From: a virus
Lineage: Duplodnaviria > Caudoviricetes
IMG/VR virus record: IMGVR_UViG_3300037156_000120
Coordinates: 1-58,547 of that record
Reading direction: 5' to 3' (one strand)
Length of the DNA: 58,547 bases
A program made the translations under genes and the position numbers. Every line of letters starts with the position of its first letter. Position 1 is the first letter of the stretch. Under the pieces are notes generated by a model. That model was not told where the DNA came from. It did no database searches and saw nothing but the letters and a program-made list of their open reading frames with translations. Below are positions 291 to 28,764 of this stretch, piece by piece.

Positions 291-3200
291 TTGTCGCAGG
301 CCGGTCTCATCAACGCGACGCAAGATCAGGGTCTTTCCATTGCTGAGGCCCGGAACTTTCGCGCCCCGCAATACGGGACGGCAACCGTTCCGTCCGGCGG
401 TGAAGGTATGTCTTTAGAAGAAGCGAGAAACTTTCGCCCCGCCACGCCGTTATCTCCGCCTACGTCGCCAGCTGATGCTGATGACGGATTTTTCAAGACG
501 ACCGGCAAGGCGTTAATTCGCGGCGCGGTTGAAGGCGCGACGGATATCGGCGAAGCGCCGACAGCCTTTGAAGATCGCCCAACAGACGAGCAAGACAATT
601 CGCATCTCGGAAAGATACTTGCCACACCTGTCAGCGAAGGCTGGAGTAGCCCTACTTGGTGGGCAGCGCACATAGCACACGATGTGGCTAGCGCAGCTCC
701 GTCTCTTGCGCTCGGCCTCGCTGGTGGGGCTGCCGGTGCTGCTACGGCTGGCGCTCTGACAGCCGAAACTGGCCCCGGCGCGATTGCTGCGGCTGCTGCA
801 GGTGGTCTTGCGGGTAGCGCCGCAGGCTTCGGTCTAGGCTCTGGTCTTTCGGAACTAAAACCTGCCTATCTGAAAGCGCGGGCCGATGGACTCGATCACG
901 ACGAGGCCGTGAGCCGTGCCATGGTAGAAAGCGGCATCGCTGGGGCGTTCGGATCGGTGATGGGCCTCGCGCCAGGCATGTCGTTTTTCGGTAAAACGGT
1001 GGAAAGCGCACTCAAGAAACCCATATCCGAGGCGTTGGCGCAGACATTCGGCGTCATGCCTGCCGTCGGAGCCGCGCAACAAGTCACGCAAGGAGCTGTC
1101 GAGGGTAAACTCCCGACGGCGGGCGAACTTGCAACAGGCTACGCGGAGAATGTTGGTGTTGGTGCTGCTCTTGTCGGCATTCATTCCGCTTTAGGGGTTG
1201 TTAGAAAAACGCCTGCTGACAAGATTGCTGACGATGTCACCGATCCGAATATCGACCTTAACACCGCGATCGACACAGCCGCGCAGGCCGCCAAGGGCGA
1301 GACGCCTGCCGCAGAGAGCATCGTCGCTGGCAAAGATGCGCTCGACGCCGCTGCCGCCCAGAGCAAGATCAGCACCCTGTTCAAAGGGATGAACACAGGC
1401 ACTGCAGAGCAAACCGACAACGGGACTGTTAACTACACGCCTAAGGGCTCCGACATCGCCATGCCAATGGAAGTGCGCGATCCGAGTCAAGAGCCGGAAG
1501 ACGGCAACGGCGTGTCTTCGTCGTTAGCGCAGAAAGTAACAGATCATTATCAAGACGAACATGGTGTCAATGTTGTGTGGGTGAAAGATCCCGGCAAGAA
1601 TGTACCATTCGACGGCGCTGTAGACCCGAATCAGCCGAACACGATATTCCTGTCAGATAACCCTGACCGCGCGATAACCGGCGTCGTCACTCATGAATTC
1701 GGTCACCTGATGGAAAACATCAGGGCGCCCGACACCAAGCTGCCCGACACGATAGGCCCTGACGGCGAAACGATCCCCGGCGCAATTAAACCCGGCGAAC
1801 GCTTCGGTGACCTCCTGAACGAGACCGTGTTGAAAAACATGAACTCCACTGCGTGGGATCAGGCTATCGAAATATTCTCGCCGTCCGCTCCGAAACGTGG
1901 CGCCGTCGACGACAACGGCGCGCCGGTCTACGCGCCCGGCGGCGAAGGCGACGCAGACCACGCGCAGGACATGGCCGTCCACTTCGTCAATGAATTCGCG
2001 AAAGACACGATAGGAGACGTCCAGAAAAACCCCGCTCTCGAACAACTAGTCCTTGGCAAAGTGGCCGACCTTGCGGAAGAGCGTTATGGGCCTGAAGTCG
2101 CCCAGACCATGATGACGAAATTCATGGACGGCATCAAAGCCGCTATGCAGACCGTGCGCGATCTATTTTCTGCGGACAAGAATACCGCATCGCTTTCCGA
2201 AAGCCGTTTTAATAATCTCGCCGAGGTCCACGACGTTGTCGCCAGCATGTTAGCGCACAAGTATTTCGAGAGGTTCGGGGATGAGCCTGCGCCCGTAGAC
2301 GACGTAGCGAACCGAGATAGTTTCTTAAAAGCTGGGACGCCCTCGCCGGCAACCGTAACGGCAGACACAAACCATCCGCTCGGCCCTGCCTATATCGACG
2401 CGCGTACGAAAGCCGCGAGCTATGCCCGCTGGCTCGGCCAGCTCGACGCCAAGCGTCGCGAAGACGCAAAGACGAGCGAACCTGTTCGCGTGTTGCAGCA
2501 GGCGCGTGACGCAATCCTGAACAAGGTTGGTGGTGTCGAAGATCGTCTTACGAAAACGGGTGCTGCACGTCTTGCGGATATCCGCTCACAGCTCGACGCA
2601 CGCCTTAATCCGGTCGGCGACAATGCTGATATGGCGAACGTGCGCGCGGCGATGGTTCGCGAGCATCAGAGAATGGCTGACGCGGCTTCAGTGTCGAAAG
2701 GACCGCAGTTTTCGCCGAAGCAGCGTGACGAAGACAATAAGCCGTTCTTCTCCGCGCTTCAGCGCGGTGTCGAAGACTTGAAGATGGACAAGGCGCCCCC
2801 CGGCCAGTGGGAAGCTACAATCAAAAATCTGCCCGGTATCAAGAGCGAAGAGATCGCTTGGTCCGGTCTGAATGAATTTTTGCGCGGTCAGACGAGACCT
2901 GTCACCAAGACAGAAGTGCTGCAACATCTGCGCGATAATGACGTGCAGATCAATGAAGTCGTTAAAGGCAATACGATCTCGGCTGAAGACGAAGAGGAAC
3001 ACGCTGAAATAAAACAGCGTTATCGCTACGATCCAGACAGCGTGTCGCAAGCCGACTATGATCGCATGGTTGATCTGGAGAAGCGCGCCTACAACTCAGA
3101 AGGCCAGACAAAATTTAGTACATACGCGCTGCCTGGCGGCGAGAACTATCGAGAAATGCTGATGACATTGCCGCCGACGGTGAGAGAAATACCGGCGTGG

Positions 3201-6200
3201 AAGGCGGTTCGACACGACGGTCAAGTAGACAGCACGTACGACAACGAGCTCGCTGCGCGCGATCGCGCCTCTGCGATCGGCGGAACTGTAGAACGGGGAA
3301 AGACAATCCGAGCGGAAGGCGGCTTCAAGTCGAGCCACTTTGACGAGCCGAACATTCTTGCCCACGCGCGCTTCGACGACCGCACCACCGCTGATGGCAA
3401 GAAAGATTTGCATGTTGCGGAGATTCAGAGCGATTGGCATCAAAAAGGCCGTCGAGAAGGATACGCCAAAGATCAACCGCAATTTTGGGTTCGCAACACA
3501 CGCTCTGGTAACGCATCACCTTTCTTCAACACGTTAGAAGAAGCTGACGCATATCGAAACAAGCTTCCTGAAGCGGTGCGCGGACAAACTATTATAAGCA
3601 AGCGTCCCGGCAAAGTCGGAACTGTTCCTGATGCCCCGTTCAAGACAACGTGGCACGAGCTGGCGATGAAGCGCATGCTGCGTTACGCCGCTGAGAACGG
3701 CTACGATCGTCTCAGTTGGGATACTGGTGAGACGCAAGCCGATCGATACGATCTCAGCCATCAAGTGGACAGCATCGGCTATCGTAAAGACGGCGACAAC
3801 ACTTACGAAGTCTCTGCCATAAAAGACGGCGAGAGTGTCATGTCTGAGCACGGTCAAACGCCTGCGCAGTTGGAAAACATTGTTGGCAAGGATGCCGCCA
3901 AGAAAATCGTTGACGGGGAAGGCACACCGCGCGCTGGCGGCGGCAATGTGAAAGACCTTTCCGGCCTTGATCTCAAAGTCGGCGGCGAAGGCATGAAAGG
4001 GTTCTACGACAAGATCCTGCCGAACTTCGTCAACAAATATGTGAAGAAGTGGAACGGCAAAGTCGAGAGAACGACTTTCGAGGCGGACGCAAACCGCAAA
4101 GAGTTCGATCAAGTCCCCTACATTGAAAGCGGAGACACGCCTGTGCATTCGGTCGCTATCACGCCTGAGATGCGCAAGAGCGTCATGCGCGGCCAGCCGA
4201 AATTCAGTCCGCGCAAAATCGAAGAACCGACTGAAGGCAAGCCGGTTCCGAAAGACGTCGCTCTCGCCAGCGGCTTGAAGAACAGCAACAAGGCTGTACT
4301 TAACGATTCGGCGCTGTCTGAGGCTGAAAAACGTGGTAGGCTTATCTCTGATCGCCGCATCAACGCGGCCCTCGCAAAGGAAGCAAATGGACGCCCAGCT
4401 GATGCACAATCAGGCCTTTCAGGCCCCGACGCCGGAAAAGGTAGCGGACGCCTCGACACTGGAGGCTTCACTGACAGCGAAAAACGGGCCTTCGCAAGAG
4501 CCAGCGCCGCCCAAGACGTTCGATCCGCTCGCCTCGGCGGTGAGCCGTCATCCTTCTCTTTCGAGCGAAAGAGCAGCGGAGATGGCGGAAAATCTCGGGT
4601 TCTAAAAAGCCTCGGCGTCACCTATGACGCCGAATGGAAAGCTGGCGCCGGTCTGCGCCGCGTCTACGAGAAAAACGGCAGCAAAGTCCCGCTCAGAATT
4701 CTCGAGCTCACGCCCGGTGATGACAAAAACGCCGCGCGTTTCGAGCAGGCGATCACGGCCAGCAAAAACTCCAGCAAGGATGGCGCCGCCGTCGCGGTCT
4801 ATCCTGTCGAGGACTATAAAAATTTCAAGCTGCTGATGTCCGACGACGGCAAGTCCGGCGCCGCGGTCAAGCCGGACGGCGACATCATCTCGGTGTTTTC
4901 AAACAATGGCACCGGTCACGCGATGTTCGAGGCTGCGATCGCAGCTGGTGGCCGCAAGCTCGACGCCTTCGACACCATCCTGCCCGATTTCTATCACAGC
5001 CACGGCTTCATCGAAGCCGCGCGCACGGCTTGGAATGACGAGTTCGCTCCCGAAGGCTGGGACAAGGCGCATTTCGCCGAATTCAACAACGGCAAGCCGG
5101 ATGTCGTCCTGATGGTTCTCGATCGCGGCAACGTCTCGCCCGTACTCGAGAAATCAAAAGTCTTCAGCGACTGGGACGGCGCTGCTCGCGTGCAGGAAAA
5201 GCTGCTCAAGAAAATGGACCGCGAGCAGCCCGCCGCGACGATCAATCTCCGTCTCGATCGCCTGGACGGCAAGAAGCCGTTCACTGTCGCCCAGGCGAAA
5301 GCCGAGTTGGCAAAATTCGGTGTCGACGCTGTCGCGACCCGTACGCGCAAGATTAACGGCAAGGAAGGCGAGCCCGGTGTCGTGATGAACCTGTCGCGCG
5401 CGCTGACGCCCGAGGAAGCCACGCGCTTCAGCGAGGCGATGAAGCAGGAAGCTATCCCGCAGTTTGCCAATGGCCGCGGCGAGCTGCACGGGCCCAACGC
5501 CGAGAAATGGGGAGATTTCAACCCTGAGAAATTTCATCCGATGCAGGAAGGTCAGGCGCTGCATTCTCCGCGAGTTTCATCCGAAACTCGCGACGCCCTT
5601 ATCAGAAAATATCCCGATCTCGCCCAGATGTTTAGGCGCCCCGCTAAGATATCCGAAGAGCCCGTCACGCCAGAAAAAGTCGAAACGCCTGCTTTCGAAA
5701 AGGAGCATGTCGGCTCGCTGGAAGAAGAGCTGGCCAAGGCAGGCCTTTCCGGGGCCGATAAAACTGCGCCAGCGGCTGAAACGCCCAAGCAGCGCGCCAT
5801 CACGATGCAAAACCCCGAGGGTAATGGCAAACCGATTCAGCGCGCCTTGAACGACGAGGAAACCCGCGCCCTCGAAAATGCGCCGCAGATAGAAGCTGCA
5901 TCGAAGCTGGTCGACATGAACAAGGATCGCGCCATCCGGATCGCTATGCGGAAGGAGCAGCCGCCGAAGGATCTGCTGCCGACCTTCGTATATTTCGAGC
6001 TGGAGCGCCGTGCGCTGGCTGAAGGTGATGACGAGCTTCAGGCCAAGCTCAGAACATCACCACTGGCGAAGGAAGTTACGACAGCCGGTCGTCTTGGACA
6101 ATCCTTCGTGACGCGAGATCCCGTCGCCGCCGCCGTAGACGCGCACATCCAAGTTGTGGAAAATGCTCGCACAGCGGCGCTCAAGGCCAAAGGCGGCGAC

Positions 6201-6332
6201 GTAGTGAAAGTGCAGGCCAAAGCCGAAAAGGAAGTGGCCGAGCAGATGGTAGCAGCGAAGAGACAGGCGCGGGCGCTTTCGCCGCGCGAGAAATGGGCGC
6301 AAACTATCGCCAAAATAACGTGTGCGACATAA
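291..6332 (+). CDS. Giant (2013 aa) internal virion / polyvalent protein
   Basis: Gly/Ala-rich hydrophobic N-terminus, HEFGH zincin-like motif, a domain with LPGGENYRE...EIQSDW...APFK motifs, a GNAT-like segment (GGRKLDAFD...FYHSHGF); lies after the other ejection genes. Confidence 0.8.
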   Translation: MSQAGLINATQDQGLSIAEARNFRAPQYGTATVPSGGEGMSLEEARNFRPATPLSPPTSPADADDGFFKTTGKALIRGAVEGATDIGEAPTAFEDRPTDEQDNSHLGKILATPVSEGWSSPTWWAAHIAHDVASAAPSLALGLAGGAAGAATAGALTAETGPGAIAAAAAGGLAGSAAGFGLGSGLSELKPAYLKARADGLDHDEAVSRAMVESGIAGAFGSVMGLAPGMSFFGKTVESALKKPISEALAQTFGVMPAVGAAQQVTQGAVEGKLPTAGELATGYAENVGVGAALVGIHSALGVVRKTPADKIADDVTDPNIDLNTAIDTAAQAAKGETPAAESIVAGKDALDAAAAQSKISTLFKGMNTGTAEQTDNGTVNYTPKGSDIAMPMEVRDPSQEPEDGNGVSSSLAQKVTDHYQDEHGVNVVWVKDPGKNVPFDGAVDPNQPNTIFLSDNPDRAITGVVTHEFGHLMENIRAPDTKLPDTIGPDGETIPGAIKPGERFGDLLNETVLKNMNSTAWDQAIEIFSPSAPKRGAVDDNGAPVYAPGGEGDADHAQDMAVHFVNEFAKDTIGDVQKNPALEQLVLGKVADLAEERYGPEVAQTMMTKFMDGIKAAMQTVRDLFSADKNTASLSESRFNNLAEVHDVVASMLAHKYFERFGDEPAPVDDVANRDSFLKAGTPSPATVTADTNHPLGPAYIDARTKAASYARWLGQLDAKRREDAKTSEPVRVLQQARDAILNKVGGVEDRLTKTGAARLADIRSQLDARLNPVGDNADMANVRAAMVREHQRMADAASVSKGPQFSPKQRDEDNKPFFSALQRGVEDLKMDKAPPGQWEATIKNLPGIKSEEIAWSGLNEFLRGQTRPVTKTEVLQHLRDNDVQINEVVKGNTISAEDEEEHAEIKQRYRYDPDSVSQADYDRMVDLEKRAYNSEGQTKFSTYALPGGENYREMLMTLPPTVREIPAWKAVRHDGQVDSTYDNELAARDRASAIGGTVERGKTIRAEGGFKSSHFDEPNILAHARFDDRTTADGKKDLHVAEIQSDWHQKGRREGYAKDQPQFWVRNTRSGNASPFFNTLEEADAYRNKLPEAVRGQTIISKRPGKVGTVPDAPFKTTWHELAMKRMLRYAAENGYDRLSWDTGETQADRYDLSHQVDSIGYRKDGDNTYEVSAIKDGESVMSEHGQTPAQLENIVGKDAAKKIVDGEGTPRAGGGNVKDLSGLDLKVGGEGMKGFYDKILPNFVNKYVKKWNGKVERTTFEADANRKEFDQVPYIESGDTPVHSVAITPEMRKSVMRGQPKFSPRKIEEPTEGKPVPKDVALASGLKNSNKAVLNDSALSEAEKRGRLISDRRINAALAKEANGRPADAQSGLSGPDAGKGSGRLDTGGFTDSEKRAFARASAAQDVRSARLGGEPSSFSFERKSSGDGGKSRVLKSLGVTYDAEWKAGAGLRRVYEKNGSKVPLRILELTPGDDKNAARFEQAITASKNSSKDGAAVAVYPVEDYKNFKLLMSDDGKSGAAVKPDGDIISVFSNNGTGHAMFEAAIAAGGRKLDAFDTILPDFYHSHGFIEAARTAWNDEFAPEGWDKAHFAEFNNGKPDVVLMVLDRGNVSPVLEKSKVFSDWDGAARVQEKLLKKMDREQPAATINLRLDRLDGKKPFTVAQAKAELAKFGVDAVATRTRKINGKEGEPGVVMNLSRALTPEEATRFSEAMKQEAIPQFANGRGELHGPNAEKWGDFNPEKFHPMQEGQALHSPRVSSETRDALIRKYPDLAQMFRRPAKISEEPVTPEKVETPAFEKEHVGSLEEELAKAGLSGADKTAPAAETPKQRAITMQNPEGNGKPIQRALNDEETRALENAPQIEAASKLVDMNKDRAIRIAMRKEQPPKDLLPTFVYFELERRALAEGDDELQAKLRTSPLAKEVTTAGRLGQSFVTRDPVAAAVDAHIQVVENARTAALKAKGGDVVKVQAKAEKEVAEQMVAAKRQARALSPREKWAQTIAKITCAT

Positions 6333-13310: not shown

Positions 13311-13733
13311 TCACTGATTTTTGGTTGGCTGGAAGATTACGATTGCAGACGGAAACGGCGCTGAGTTTTTATGACCGCCGAACTTCAACCGTCCACGCAA
13401 AAATTCTACCTGTCCCTTGATCGCGTAGTCATGCCACCACGCAGTATCGGTTCTGGCCGGAACAAGACACACCACCGTCGCGCCAGATTGGGCGCTCTCG
13501 TAAGCCTTCTTCATCCACCGGCCTATCGTGCGACCATAGGGCGGGTTCATCCAGCACACGCCGGTCCACTCCTGCACCAAGCCGTTCTCGGCTTCGGAAA
13601 AGTATTCGTAGCATTTTGTGTTGTCCTTGTTCGCGCAAACATCGCGCACGAAATGCCAGCGCGCATGAAGGCGGTCAAACAAATCTTGCGGCGTTGACCA
13701 TAGATCGGTGGCGCTGCTGAAATGGACGTTCAA
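13311..13733 (-). CDS. Phage DNA N6-adenine methyltransferase (Dam-like)
   Basis: W.TP, D.CA, WMNPPY, LVPARTDT.WWH, GRLKF, APFPS motifs; TTG start overlapping the upstream TGA. Confidence 0.9.
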   Translation of the reverse strand: MNVHFSSATDLWSTPQDLFDRLHARWHFVRDVCANKDNTKCYEYFSEAENGLVQEWTGVCWMNPPYGRTIGRWMKKAYESAQSGATVVCLVPARTDTAWWHDYAIKGQVEFLRGRLKFGGHKNSAPFPSAIVIFQPTKNQ

Positions 13734-13891
13734 TGCGTCCTCCCGAAAGTGATAATTGTCGTGAGGCCAAGGGCGCAAGCCCAATACCCAGCCGCCCACA
13801 AGTTTCCGGCGAACAGCCAGCGCGTCACCGCCAGCCCGTACAGGGTCATGATGACGAAGTTGAAAATGCGAGGGTCTAGCAGGACGGTCAA
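13730..13891 (-). CDS. 53-aa two-TM membrane peptide, paralog A (not in ORF track)
   Basis: MTVLLDPRIFNFVIMTLYGLAVTRWLFAGNLWAAGYWACALGLTTIITFGRTH; GGAG RBS, TTG start. Confidence 0.75.
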   Translation of the reverse strand: MTVLLDPRIFNFVIMTLYGLAVTRWLFAGNLWAAGYWACALGLTTIITFGRTH

Positions 13892-13904: not shown

Positions 13905-14630
13905 TTATGCTGCTTTGGTTCTGGACAATTCCAGCCGCTTTTGCGCCATCACAAAATACTCACCCTCTAGTTCTATGCCAATGAAGTTCCGGCCAGTGTT
14001 GATTGCGGCGTGGCCTGTTGTGCCGCTGCCCATCACATTGTCGAGGATGGTGTCGCCGGGGTTGCTGTAAGTGCGGATCAGATATTCGCAGAGGGCGAGC
14101 GGCTTCTGCGTCGGGTGTTTTCCTCCCCGCTGCTTGTCGCTTGAAAACCGCAGCACATCGCGCGGGTAACGGGTGGTGCTGTCATACGGCGTCCGGTCAT
14201 GCTCGTTATAGACCGGACAATCTTCGCGGCGTTTCTTGGTGGAAACCTTGCGTGCATGGCCGCTGGTCATCTGCGGATTGTAGGTATATCCGCCAGCAGA
14301 GAACACCAAGATATTTTCGTGTGCCTTCATCGGTGCGCGGTTGGCGTTGAGGTGCCCGGTGGCATTTCCCTTTTCCCAAATCCATTCGTGGCGCAGTTCT
14401 TTGATGTTGCTCATACCAAGCATCTTATCGAAGGGCGATTGAGCGAACAGGACGATAGCGCCACGGCATACGCGCCTGAACTCCGGCCATAGCCGCTGCA
14501 GGTCAATGGGGCTATCCCATTTGCAGTTGGTGGTGCCATACGGAAGATCGGCAAGGATCATCGCAGCCGAGCGGCTGTTCAGCCCCGGCAGGATTTCCAT
14601 GCAATCTCCATGTAGTAGATGCGCGGTCAA
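13905..14630 (-). CDS. DNA methyltransferase, N6/N4 (beta class)
   Basis: DLPYG catalytic motif before HPTQKP and LDNVMGSGTTG SAM-binding motif. Confidence 0.92.
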   Translation of the reverse strand: MTAHLLHGDCMEILPGLNSRSAAMILADLPYGTTNCKWDSPIDLQRLWPEFRRVCRGAIVLFAQSPFDKMLGMSNIKELRHEWIWEKGNATGHLNANRAPMKAHENILVFSAGGYTYNPQMTSGHARKVSTKKRREDCPVYNEHDRTPYDSTTRYPRDVLRFSSDKQRGGKHPTQKPLALCEYLIRTYSNPGDTILDNVMGSGTTGHAAINTGRNFIGIELEGEYFVMAQKRLELSRTKAA

Positions 14631-15088: not shown

Positions 15089-15715
15089 CTAAACTGCAAG
15101 AGTGAACTGCCGCTGCGCTGCCTCGATGCGCTGGCAGGCAATGTCGAAATACTTTGGATCAATCTCTATGCCGGTGAATTTTCGCTCCATCTGCACCGCC
15201 GCCACGCCGGTTGTCCCACTACCCATGAACGGGTCGAGAATGGTTTCGGCAGGTTCGGGCAATTTAGAAATGCACCACTTCATGACGCGAAGCGGCTTTT
15301 GTGTCGGATGACAGCCGCGCTCTGCGTTAGTGGCCGCGATTGTCTGGTCCACCAACCGAGCGTTGCCGTCTAGATTGGTCCAGGCCATTTCACAATCCGC
15401 CATAGTTATGACGGCATCGCGCTTATACCAGACTAGAAAGCAGCGTGACGGTGGCAAGGAGAAGTAGTTTCCGCCCCAGACCACCGCGCTCTTTGCTTTT
15501 GAGATTGCCAGTTCGATGTTCTTTTGTGGCGCACAGGCATCCCAAACCTTGTATTTGCCCTCGAACTTTTTACCCCATGTTCCGCCTTGCAATTTCTCCC
15601 CAAGCCCATATGGCGGGTCAGTCACCAAAGCATCAGCCGTCCCAAGCGTCGGCAATATCTCCCGGCAGTCTCCCAGGTAGAGCGTAGCGTTTCCGATTGT
15701 CTCAGCCCGGCTCAA
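15089..15715 (-). CDS. DNA methyltransferase, N6/N4 (beta class)
   Basis: TDPPYG, HPTQKP, LDPFMGSGTTG, GIEID; TTG start overlapping the upstream TGA. Confidence 0.92.
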   Translation of the reverse strand: MSRAETIGNATLYLGDCREILPTLGTADALVTDPPYGLGEKLQGGTWGKKFEGKYKVWDACAPQKNIELAISKAKSAVVWGGNYFSLPPSRCFLVWYKRDAVITMADCEMAWTNLDGNARLVDQTIAATNAERGCHPTQKPLRVMKWCISKLPEPAETILDPFMGSGTTGVAAVQMERKFTGIEIDPKYFDIACQRIEAAQRQFTLAV

Positions 15716-15873
15716 TGTTTGTACCCGAATGTGACAGTTAGCGTGATAGCGAGCGCCGAGAGCCAGTAGCAGCAATCGGCCCATGACCCATTGATGGCCC
15801 AGCGCATCGCATTGGCGCAGTACAGGCCAATGATGATGAAGTTAAAAATGCGCGGGTCTAGAAGATAGGCCAC
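15712..15873 (-). CDS. 53-aa two-TM membrane peptide, paralog B (not in ORF track)
   Basis: MAYLLDPRIFNFIIIGLYCANAMRWAINGSWADCCYWLSALAITLTVTFGYKH; GGAG RBS, GTG start. Confidence 0.75.
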   Translation of the reverse strand: MAYLLDPRIFNFIIIGLYCANAMRWAINGSWADCCYWLSALAITLTVTFGYKH

Positions 15874-20801: not shown

Positions 20802-20835
20802 GAAAAGCGGCGCCCAGCCGTTAAACCGGGCGCCG
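20802..20835 (-). terminator. Putative terminator between gapR and polA
   Basis: CGGCGCCC stem pair with CTTTTCT following on the - strand. Confidence 0.5.
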
Positions 20836-20839
20836 GTAC

Positions 20840-21097
20840 TCAGACCAGATCGTTGAAATCAAGACCGACAGCCGATCGATAAAGATCGAGGATCGCATCC
20901 TGTTCCTGCAGATCCGCCTTGTCCAGCTTACGCAAGCGGACAATCATCCGCATAATCCGAGTATTGAAACCGGTGCCTTTGGCCTCGGAGTAAATTTCCC
21001 GAATGTCTGCAGATATGGTGTCCTTCTCTTCCGTCAGGCGCTCGACGCGCTCGATAAAAGATTTCAAAACATCCTTGGCGAATCCGCTTTTCGCCAT
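20840..21097 (-). CDS. gapR: GapR-like (DUF2312) nucleoid-associated protein
   Basis: LKSFIERVERLTEEK...DIREIYSEAKGTGF...IVRLRK...EQDAILDLY. Confidence 0.92.
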   Translation of the reverse strand: MAKSGFAKDVLKSFIERVERLTEEKDTISADIREIYSEAKGTGFNTRIMRMIVRLRKLDKADLQEQDAILDLYRSAVGLDFNDLV

Positions 21098-26977: not shown

Positions 26978-27167
26978 GGTAGTCAACCGTGTCGCCGCAC
27001 TCGGCGCAAAGAATGACGTCCTTCGTCATCTCCTGCGCGCATTCCCAGAACTCGATCCAGTTCTTCGCGCCTATTGTCGCGCGGCGTTGCACGCGCGTCT
27101 CCTGGCCGTCTTGTTTGATAACGACGCTGTCTGAATTAATATCAAAATCGATCATCACGGTCTCCAA
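26970..27167 (-). CDS. Hypothetical protein
   Basis: GGAG RBS before the GTG at 27158; CxxC near the C-terminus. Confidence 0.55.
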   Translation of the reverse strand: METVMIDFDINSDSVVIKQDGQETRVQRRATIGAKNWIEFWECAQEMTKDVILCAECGDTVDYHG

Positions 27168-27179
27168 TAGTTAGGCGCC

Positions 27180-27392
27180 GGATTTTGAAGAGATCCAGCA
27201 AACTCTGTTACCCGCGTCAAGCTGAACAGGCTTTGTTCAGACCCTTCCCCGCCAGTTTGTGCTGGGCTTACGACCTGGGTTTTGGCGACGCGGGGTATTC
27301 AGCGCCCCGACTTATCCACCGCTCGGGGCCACACAGTGCTGTAGATTTCCGAGGAGTGGGACCCACTCGAAAATCTCTGAATCCTTCCGGGA
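27180..27392 (-). ncRNA. Candidate multi-stem structured RNA downstream of gcrA
   Basis: At least six complementary stem pairs, several nested, in a 210-nt intergenic gap of an otherwise tightly packed operon. Confidence 0.55.
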
Positions 27393-27809
27393 TTAACGCG
27401 CCTTTCTCTGGTACATCGGTTGAAAAGCAATTTGGCAATGTCCAACGCAATACGCAGACCCGGCTTTAGGCTGGGCGCCACAATAAATAACACCGTCGGA
27501 CGCATCATAAGGCCAGCGGCAATGATAATCGCGCAGACCCATCGTGTCGATCGGCGGATGCGCGGGCAGCAATTCAGTCACGGGTATTAGCTCAGACTTT
27601 GGTTGTGGTGCGTGCCGTGGTACTGCCGCTGGCCGGGAGCGAACAAACGTCGGGAAGCGTTTCGGCAAATCTGACGAGCGATGCACGGCGCCTAGAACGG
27701 AATTGCGCGTCCGGCCCGGAAGCGCCCTGCTTATAGTGGACGCCGACGCGCCGCCCAGCCACATCTCGCGAAGCGTCTTAAGCTCATCCTCGCTCCAGCT
27801 CGATCCCAT
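27393..27809 (-). CDS. gcrA: GcrA-like cell-cycle regulator
   Basis: WSEDELKTLREMWLGG.SAS.I...L..TRNSVLGAVHR and CRWP...YCG......YC..H...A.Q. Confidence 0.9.
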   Translation of the reverse strand: MGSSWSEDELKTLREMWLGGASASTISRALPGRTRNSVLGAVHRSSDLPKRFPTFVRSRPAAVPRHAPQPKSELIPVTELLPAHPPIDTMGLRDYHCRWPYDASDGVIYCGAQPKAGSAYCVGHCQIAFQPMYQRKAR

Positions 27810-28602: not shown

Positions 28603-28764
28603 TCAGATCATCCTTCCTGTTGCGCGCTTGTCGTCGTTAACGATTTCCTGCGCGCCCTGCCGGTTCTTGGATTGGCCCAGCCAGTCGCCGCAGAAACGAG
28701 CGACCCAGCGCGGCGTGTCGTAGCCGCAGTATTCGCGGGCGATAGTGTAGCGCTTGTCAGTCAT
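28603..28764 (-). CDS. 53-aa hypothetical protein (not in ORF track)
   Basis: MTDKRYTIAREYCGYDTPRWVARFCGDWLGQ...; coupled stop/start at both ends. Confidence 0.6.
   Translation of the reverse strand: MTDKRYTIAREYCGYDTPRWVARFCGDWLGQSKNRQGAQEIVNDDKRATGRMI

Follow-up and report, generated by a model that had tools for sequence, protein, structure and literature searches.

A candidate structured RNA family, new to Rfam, in the early region of two related uncultured phages

Known regulatory RNAs and the element downstream of gcrA

To our knowledge, most structured phage RNAs that control early expression have come from a few E. coli phages, and almost nothing comparable has been described for phages of Caulobacter-like alphaproteobacteria. 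Phages of this host group often carry cell-cycle genes such as gcrA. The put element of phage HK022 is made up of two simple stem-loops. Put is reported to be a cis-acting nascent RNA that lets RNA polymerase read through terminators (PMC9378689). For Caulobacter, the small RNA CcnA is reported to have a CCCC loop that pairs with GGGG motifs, through which it acts on the ctrA and gcrA mRNAs (PMC8959179).

The sequence considered here lies on the minus strand of the window, by which we mean the whole 58.5-kb IMG/VR virus record that was analysed (completeness ~90%; GC 57%), in a gap downstream of a phage gcrA homolog. About 130 nt of this gap, hereafter the core or the element, have a homolog in a second IMG/VR contig (locus L083), and comparison of both copies suggests an RNA family new to Rfam and of a familiar general kind, which we regard as a well-supported candidate rather than a discovery. 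If true, the element adds a new RNA family and, as a boundary RNA between the gcrA and replication blocks, offers a compact, testable handle on the timing of the phage programme.

The element is similar to put in being a sense-strand structured RNA in a phage early operon, upstream of a terminator-like site (in L083, 9 nt away), with no dedicated phage protein needed nearby. It differs from put in showing no relation at the sequence or model level, in its architecture of a three-way junction plus a hairpin, and in its host, which is presumably an alphaproteobacterium and not E. coli; the likeness is one of layout. With riboswitch leaders the element shares a conserved junction of several helices whose junction nucleotides do not vary, and past it comes a terminator-like hairpin (L083) or a ribosome-binding site (RBS; window). 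Unlike such leaders, it matches no Rfam riboswitch model even at E <= 10, no conserved alternative pairing, antiterminator included, was found in the core by inspection, and the downstream genes are unrelated small ORFs that suggest no ligand. Small RNAs from 3'-UTRs and phages, for instance DicF of the Qin prophage, are likewise short structured RNAs in a phage operon, and the element resembles them in its CU-rich exposed loop and, in L083, its terminator-like 3' end; unlike the known ones, it has no Rfam small-RNA homology and no conserved promoter of its own, and its window copy is without a terminator. CcnA is also an alphaproteobacterial non-coding RNA linked to GcrA, and in the window the element adjoins the phage gcrA and has an invariant GGGG run. 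However, the active loop of CcnA is CCCC whereas the run in the element is GGGG, and the link is adjacency only, the L083 element not being adjacent to gcrA. Homology to CcnA, which was compared by description, has no support, as the covariance model of the element (R1, see below) finds nothing in 301 alphaproteobacterial genomes including a Caulobacter MAG.

The early and replication block of the phage occupies the minus strand of the window, where gcrA is followed by the gap, orf61, a DUF6378 protein, a Cro/YdaS-type HTH protein, a 309-aa protein and a PriCT-2/AAA_25 primase-helicase. Farther along the block are an exonuclease, a Gp2.5-like ssDNA-binding protein, a family-A DNA polymerase, a helicase and three methyltransferase-like ORFs. 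The gap (27392..27168) measures ~225-237 nt depending on the start codon of orf61, and by a crude ORF map it is the largest non-coding gap of the minus-strand block at 17.1-29.9 kb. Neither orf61 nor the two window ORFs that overlap the gap had a Pfam or PHROG match. By DNA, the closest cultured relatives are the Caulobacter phages RW, KcrB, RLK and GB2A (68.7% over part of the primase gene), which makes a Caulobacter-like alphaproteobacterium the probable host of the window phage. The features referred to in this work are listed below; coordinates are those of the window unless L083 is named.

27393..27809, minus strand: phage gcrA homolog, 138 aa (ATG at 27809; stop TAA 27395-27393), adjoining the element upstream; Pfam GcrA PF07750, E 1.8e-21, 77.5 bits against a cut-off of 26.9
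27343..27376, minus strand: hairpin H1, AGATTT(T)C/GAAATCT around GAGTGG/CCACTC, ~14 pairs; from sequence, inverted repeat I9
27304..27330, minus strand: hairpin H2, GCCCCGA/TCGGGGC, with the DnaA-box-like TTATCCACC in its loop on the opposite strand; from sequence
27312-27320, plus strand: the DnaA-box-like TTATCCACC itself; from sequence
27171..27300, minus strand: core RNA element, ~130 nt, 32 consensus pairs; nhmmer match to L083 and model R1
27211..27294, minus strand: P1, predicted closing helix of 8 pairs that encloses the three-way junction; 2 pairs changed on both sides, 1 from C-G to U-G, 0 broken
27294-27287 with 27218-27211, minus strand: core of the P1 strands, 100% complementary (inverted repeat I20), within TACCC(C)GCGTC/GACGCGGGTA of the preliminary description
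27280-27277 with 27244-27241, minus strand: ACCC/GGGT stem; from sequence
Minus strand: P2, predicted helix of 4 pairs, ACCC/GGGU; RNAalifold on two copies
27265-27262 with 27255-27252, minus strand: CCAG/CTGG stem; from sequence
Minus strand: P3, predicted arm with variable tip (8-nt length difference), beyond the internal loop AGGUCGUAAG opposite GGGGAA; RNAalifold
27222..27240, minus strand: P4, predicted hairpin of 7 pairs, CTGAACA/TGTTCAG (27240-27234 with 27228-27222, also read from sequence), abutting P2; 2 pairs changed on both sides
27176..27200, minus strand: P5, predicted hairpin of 6-8 pairs with a conserved CU-rich loop, CUCUUCAAA (CUCUUUAAAA in L083); RNAalifold
27153..27165, minus strand: start of orf61 (61 aa), Shine-Dalgarno GGAG 27165-27162 and ATG 27155-27153; from sequence
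L083 2384-2406: terminator-like hairpin with T-run, starting 9 nt past the element; consensus match with just 4 G-C pairs

The conserved core and its pairing

Homologs were searched with nhmmer and blastn in 161 loci with a relative of the DUF6378 protein, of GcrA or of the primase (81 loci earlier), and a single locus among the 161 gave a match, L083 at 2238-2380 (nhmmer E 2.6e-11; by blastn, 72.7% identity over 139 aligned columns), the element of L083 being placed at 2241-2374. The match is limited to the 3' part of the gap, window 27300..27171, and has the same orientation relative to the genes. The contig of L083 carries the closest primase to that of the window (60% amino acid identity), the replication genes of both phages are ~72% identical at the DNA level, and in both a distance of 1.6-2.6 kb separates the element from the primase-helicase gene downstream. 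In L083 two other genes stand between gcrA and the element, which begins at the stop codon of the second one, a member of the N4-gp49 family. Of nine L083 ORFs that were tested between gcrA and cro, none (o2, o130, d1, d1b, d2-d6) matches the window at E <= 0.01, and d7, an overlapping alternative reading, has just a 27-residue match (E 0.019) elsewhere in the window. Therefore, the element is an island of similarity amid replaced genes. The genes immediately downstream of it also differ between both phages, and therefore no common regulated gene can be named. On the 5' side, the similarity ends abruptly at GAAUA, a point that in L083 is inside the end of a coding gene; hence no promoter or other upstream sequence is conserved, and the RNA would most simply be part of the early message.

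Elsewhere in the two phages, a 92-nt island (window 28673-28764; L163 12888-12979) shows 88% DNA identity, the replication genes being at ~72%, and covers the 5' end of a 53-aa minus-strand ORF (28603-28764).

The consensus structure was obtained with RNAalifold from the two copies, and the predicted fold is a three-way junction of P1, the P2-P3 arm and P4, plus P5 as a separate 3' hairpin. Read from 5' to 3', the core consists of GAAUA, P1, the junction GCCAAAA, P2, the internal loop AGGUCGUAAG/GGGGAA, P3 with its variable tip, the P4 hairpin, the closure of P1, the linker ACAGAGUU, the P5 hairpin and a CGCCUA tail. The junction nucleotides are invariant between both copies and the internal loop is strictly conserved; by eye, nothing convincing in this loop resembled a k-turn, a loop-E or a tetraloop-receptor motif. 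Between the copies P5 is nearly identical, loop included (loop consensus CUCUUYAAAA), and this loop and the ACAGAGUU block are conserved though unpaired. As read from the sequence, the P5 loop has a pentamer, UCUCU, with its complement in GGAGA at the RBS of orf61, the Shine-Dalgarno sequence of which begins 10 nt past P5 in the window.

In a perfect 8-nt inverted repeat, I21 (27181-27188 with 27142-27149), one half lies in the loop and 3' arm of P5 and the other in codons 3-5 of orf61, so that their pairing encloses the RBS and start codon of this gene; it could be an alternative fold hiding the orf61 start site, or chance.

Standard pairs occupy all 64 of the 64 cells of the 32 consensus pairs. 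In six of the 32 pairs both bases differ between the copies (P1, P3 and P4 contribute two such pairs each), two pairs differ on one side via G-U and none is broken, so that the substitutions at 14 stem positions all keep pairing. Six pairs of P5 were scored, one of which is changed on one side, from U-G to C-G, and U-G pairs are present in this helix; P2 and the inner P3 pairs show no change and are hence neither supported nor contradicted by covariation. When the partners were slid by 1-3 columns, the six resulting controls gave 0 double changes, with 30-42% of cells pairing. RNAalifold picks structures that favour covariation, and column shuffles that were refolded served as the control for this optimisation; they had a mean of 1.9 compensatory pairs and reached six in 1 of 300 cases. 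A per-pair shuffle, which is a coarse control with two rows, equalled the observed values in 7 of 500 trials. The consensus energy was -41.65 against -16.2 +/- 3.4 for column shuffles, a contrast that is inflated because column shuffling also destroys stacking. The covariation rests on n = 2 sequences, which is below R-scape-grade statistics. As regards the strand, the antisense alignment gave a poorer consensus (-33.4 vs -41.65 for the sense), and the G-U pairs in P1 and P5 would become A-C mismatches on the other strand, which favours an RNA made from the gene-sense strand. By these results the core is a conserved structured RNA, whose helices are kept by compensatory substitutions between two sequences.

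The preliminary description had proposed a novel phage ncRNA of ~210 nt and had named homologs and covariation among them as one way to check it. One homolog and 6 of 32 compensatory pairs now speak for it, from two sequences and solely for the 3' ~130 nt: the proposal stands as to a structured, non-coding RNA outside Rfam with compensatory pairing on the sense strand, and falls as to its extent, which is ~130 and not 210 nt. As for the ribozyme or switch over the cro-primase genes that had also been suggested, L083 has other genes immediately past the element, with a terminator-like hairpin in between. All the stems that had been listed are indeed present in the sequence of the minus strand, H1 and P1 also as the inverted repeats I9 and I20, and the 5' arm of H1 has four T, which gives a one-base bulge. 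Nested stems are expected in a sequence of 57% GC, and therefore the list of stems is by itself no evidence. The folding energy of the whole gap (241 nt) was -86.6 vs -79.2 +/- 5.3 kcal/mol for shuffles (z -1.40; 17 of 200 shuffles as good); the core of the window alone had z -1.14 (29 of 200 shuffles as good) and the L083 copy z -1.60. With a conserved part of ~130 nt (27300..27171) and a whole gap that folds no better than shuffles, the idea of a single nested unit of 210 nt was abandoned. Its outer closing pairings, CAGCACTGT/ACAG-TGCTG and GGATT-AGAGAT/ATCTCT-AATCC, have no counterpart in the homolog L083 and turned out to be confined to the window, as are both 5' hairpins: H1 is single copy in the window and has no counterpart in L083, and H2 had no copy beyond the window's own (L082) among 323 loci with <=3 mismatches allowed. 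The GGATT-AGAGAT/ATCTCT-AATCC pairing, which is present in the window, competes with the conserved P5, and the long-range pairing displaces P5 in the 241-nt MFE structure; this may be a window-specific alternative fold, or simply chance.

Known identities and the reach of the family

Several identities were excluded. The whole window has 0 matches at gathering thresholds in Rfam 15, in line with the earlier statement that no known riboswitch was recognised. With a permissive search (E <= 10) of the gap and the core, the sole match was sR19, on the opposite strand and with 10.6 and 8.2 bits against a threshold of 45, and the L083 region gave four sub-threshold, chance-level matches (best, 16.7 bits vs 65). 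ARAGORN finds 0 tRNA or tmRNA genes in the window, which agrees with the earlier view that the element is not a tRNA. Translation of the region, named beforehand as a finding that would speak against an RNA, is contradicted by the alignment, where no frame is open in both copies and the indels are of 8, 1 and 1 nt, not multiples of three. Two mobile-DNA identities were rejected: an attP site, as no integrase was found among 67 ORFs scanned and the strict pattern of the element is absent from bacterial genomes; and a MITE, as the element occurs once, was missing from all bacterial genomes searched and has internal hairpins that covary too. No variants were found in contigs of 4 DNA runs. Our search of the literature returned no description of an RNA beside a phage gcrA, by which its absence from print is not proven.

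Model R1, built from the two copies, scores 146.8 bits in the window and 157.9 bits in L083. It retrieved no further member from the window and 81 viral loci, of which 80 are primase relatives and one is L001, nor from 4 + 21 pattern-derived viral loci. Among the pattern scans of IMG/VR, two matched the L083 contig only, and the others matched 3, 20 and 1 other contigs, none of which was confirmed by R1. The strict two-block pattern had 0 exact matches in a collection of genomes from 185,579 species and 0 in the metagenome collection; a looser metagenome pattern gave at least 119 stretches and, among the matches listed, 80 of the 80 loci returned failed R1 at E <= 1, so that true members may lie beyond these matches. 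R1 likewise found no match in 16 bacterial contigs encoding primase relatives, in 10 relatives searched with filters off (six with gcrA, three primase relatives without a gcrA match, and L001), over Caulobacter phage RW, or in 151 class-level and 151 order-level genomes around a Caulobacter MAG (301 distinct alphaproteobacterial genomes); these genome runs cover a sample of genomes with stricter filters, and a repeat around G002 drew essentially the same order sample. A blastn search of GenBank phages and PLSDB plasmids was negative as well. In the data reached, the family numbers two members, in two related uncultured phages from environmental assemblies, and is rare or fast-evolving.

A plausible transcription boundary and possible roles of the element

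Transcription signals around the element were also analysed. The terminator-like site of L083 belongs to a scan that returned 3 sites vs 3.0 expected, no more than shuffles, and in the window no terminator-like site was found after the element. Caulobacter phage RW (L324, MK929790) has a clear hairpin with a T-run at 2075-2125, in an unannotated 140-nt gap between GP038 and GP039; this gap is upstream of the primase block and corresponds to the gap of the window, and it has no similarity to the element. The hairpin and T-run at the corresponding place make a transcription boundary there plausible for this group of phages.

Two other signals were noted in the window. In the 3' portion of gcrA and ~130 nt ahead of the gap, there is a sigma-70-like promoter match on the minus strand (27522-27550; TCGACA, 17-nt spacer, TATCAT; 10 of 12 positions, a consensus match only) that, if real, would start a transcript spanning H1, H2 and the element. 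The strongest terminator-like hairpin of the replication block is at 20808-20835, minus strand (12 pairs, 9 of them G-C, then CTTTTCT), in a 63-nt gap between an 85-aa ORF (20840-21097) and the DNA polymerase gene, and it suggests a second transcription boundary inside the co-directional block.

With less than even confidence, we favour the reading that the element acts in cis, within the early message, at the boundary of the gcrA block and the downstream block. The element would be transcribed as part of the early message running from gcrA to cro to the primase, and its fold, possibly with a host or phage factor on the conserved junction bases, would set the expression that continues past it, in L083 through read-through of the terminator-like hairpin that follows and in the window through access to the RBS 10 nt past P5. 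We infer the transcription, the cis action and the terminator or RBS mechanism from the sequences of a two-member family. A junction RNA that precedes a terminator in one genome and an RBS in the other has the layout of a cis leader, and for this reason the cis reading is preferred. What counts against it is the near-identity of P5 and its loop, which a trans-acting seed would explain no less well than an expression platform, together with the ordinary folding energy of the single sequences, the number of sequences, which is two, and a window copy with no terminator.

Somewhat unlikely in itself, and nearly as likely as the cis reading, is a stable RNA derived from the 3' end of the early transcript, either a 3'-UTR small RNA or a 3' stabiliser, in which the three-way junction would serve for stability or protein binding, and the loop of P5 with its exposed CU-rich sequence (CUCUUYAAAA), or some other single-stranded block that is conserved, would pair in trans with Shine-Dalgarno-like sequences in mRNAs of the host or the phage. 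A stop codon followed by the element and a terminator is the classic layout of a 3'-UTR small RNA, and L083 has precisely this order of stop codon, element and terminator-like hairpin with T-run. The conservation of the P5 loop and of the ACAGAGUU block despite being unpaired argues in the same direction, as does an element that keeps its identity while its neighbours are replaced, like an independent module. However, the window has no terminator after P5, so that the 3' end would need processing, and no promoter is conserved. It is improbable that the element has no function of its own and is a leftover of shared ancestry or a recent exchange, with a covariation that arises from the choice of the best structure for two sequences. 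The two members found despite many searches and the ordinary folding z-scores would fit this explanation, and so would the identity of the element (72.7%), which is about that of the replication genes; yet a neutral spacer would not stay alignable amid replaced non-core genes, and the 14 stem substitutions that all keep pairing, with 0 double changes in slid controls and six compensatory pairs in 1 of 300 column shuffles, speak against it.

Least probable, and very much so, is an element that works as DNA, be it a replication origin, a single-strand initiation site for the primase-helicase or a protein-binding site, with hairpins formed in DNA. The nearness of the primase-helicase gene, 1.6-2.6 kb downstream in both phages, would suit it, covarying inverted repeats can be selected in single-stranded DNA too, and one DnaA-like box lies nearby; this box, TTATCCACC, had been mentioned in the preliminary description beside its alternative of a structured origin. 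The alternative has no support: DnaA-like boxes (<=1 mismatch) number 4 in the 58.5 kb vs 5.64 expected, with 77 of 100 shuffles having four or more, and the local box is located in the non-conserved H2 loop. Iterons were not found in the window, where direct-repeat families are no more than short two-copy matches, the core has a GC content of 0.57 and so is not AT-rich, and no integrase was matched among the 67 window ORFs scanned. Moreover, the G-U pairs and the better sense-strand consensus favour an RNA from one strand.

Returning to the preferred cis reading, a stronger form of it would make the element the first of a new class of cis-acting RNAs in alphaproteobacterial phages; modifying RNA polymerase as put does, independently of factors, or serving as a switch that senses a ligand or protein, it would gate the passage from the host-takeover block, with gcrA, to the cro-plus-replication block. 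We consider this form rather doubtful.

Other genes of the window also deserve mention. On the plus strand, a 2013-aa ORF (291-6332) has no Pfam family, and its sole PHROG match spans ~80 residues. Three ORFs on the minus strand (13311-13799, 13905-14630 and 15089-15784) have DNA methyltransferase PHROG matches and thus occur alongside gcrA in this phage. The GcrA of Caulobacter works at methylated promoters, and the window phage may thus be supplying both halves of a GcrA/methylation system.
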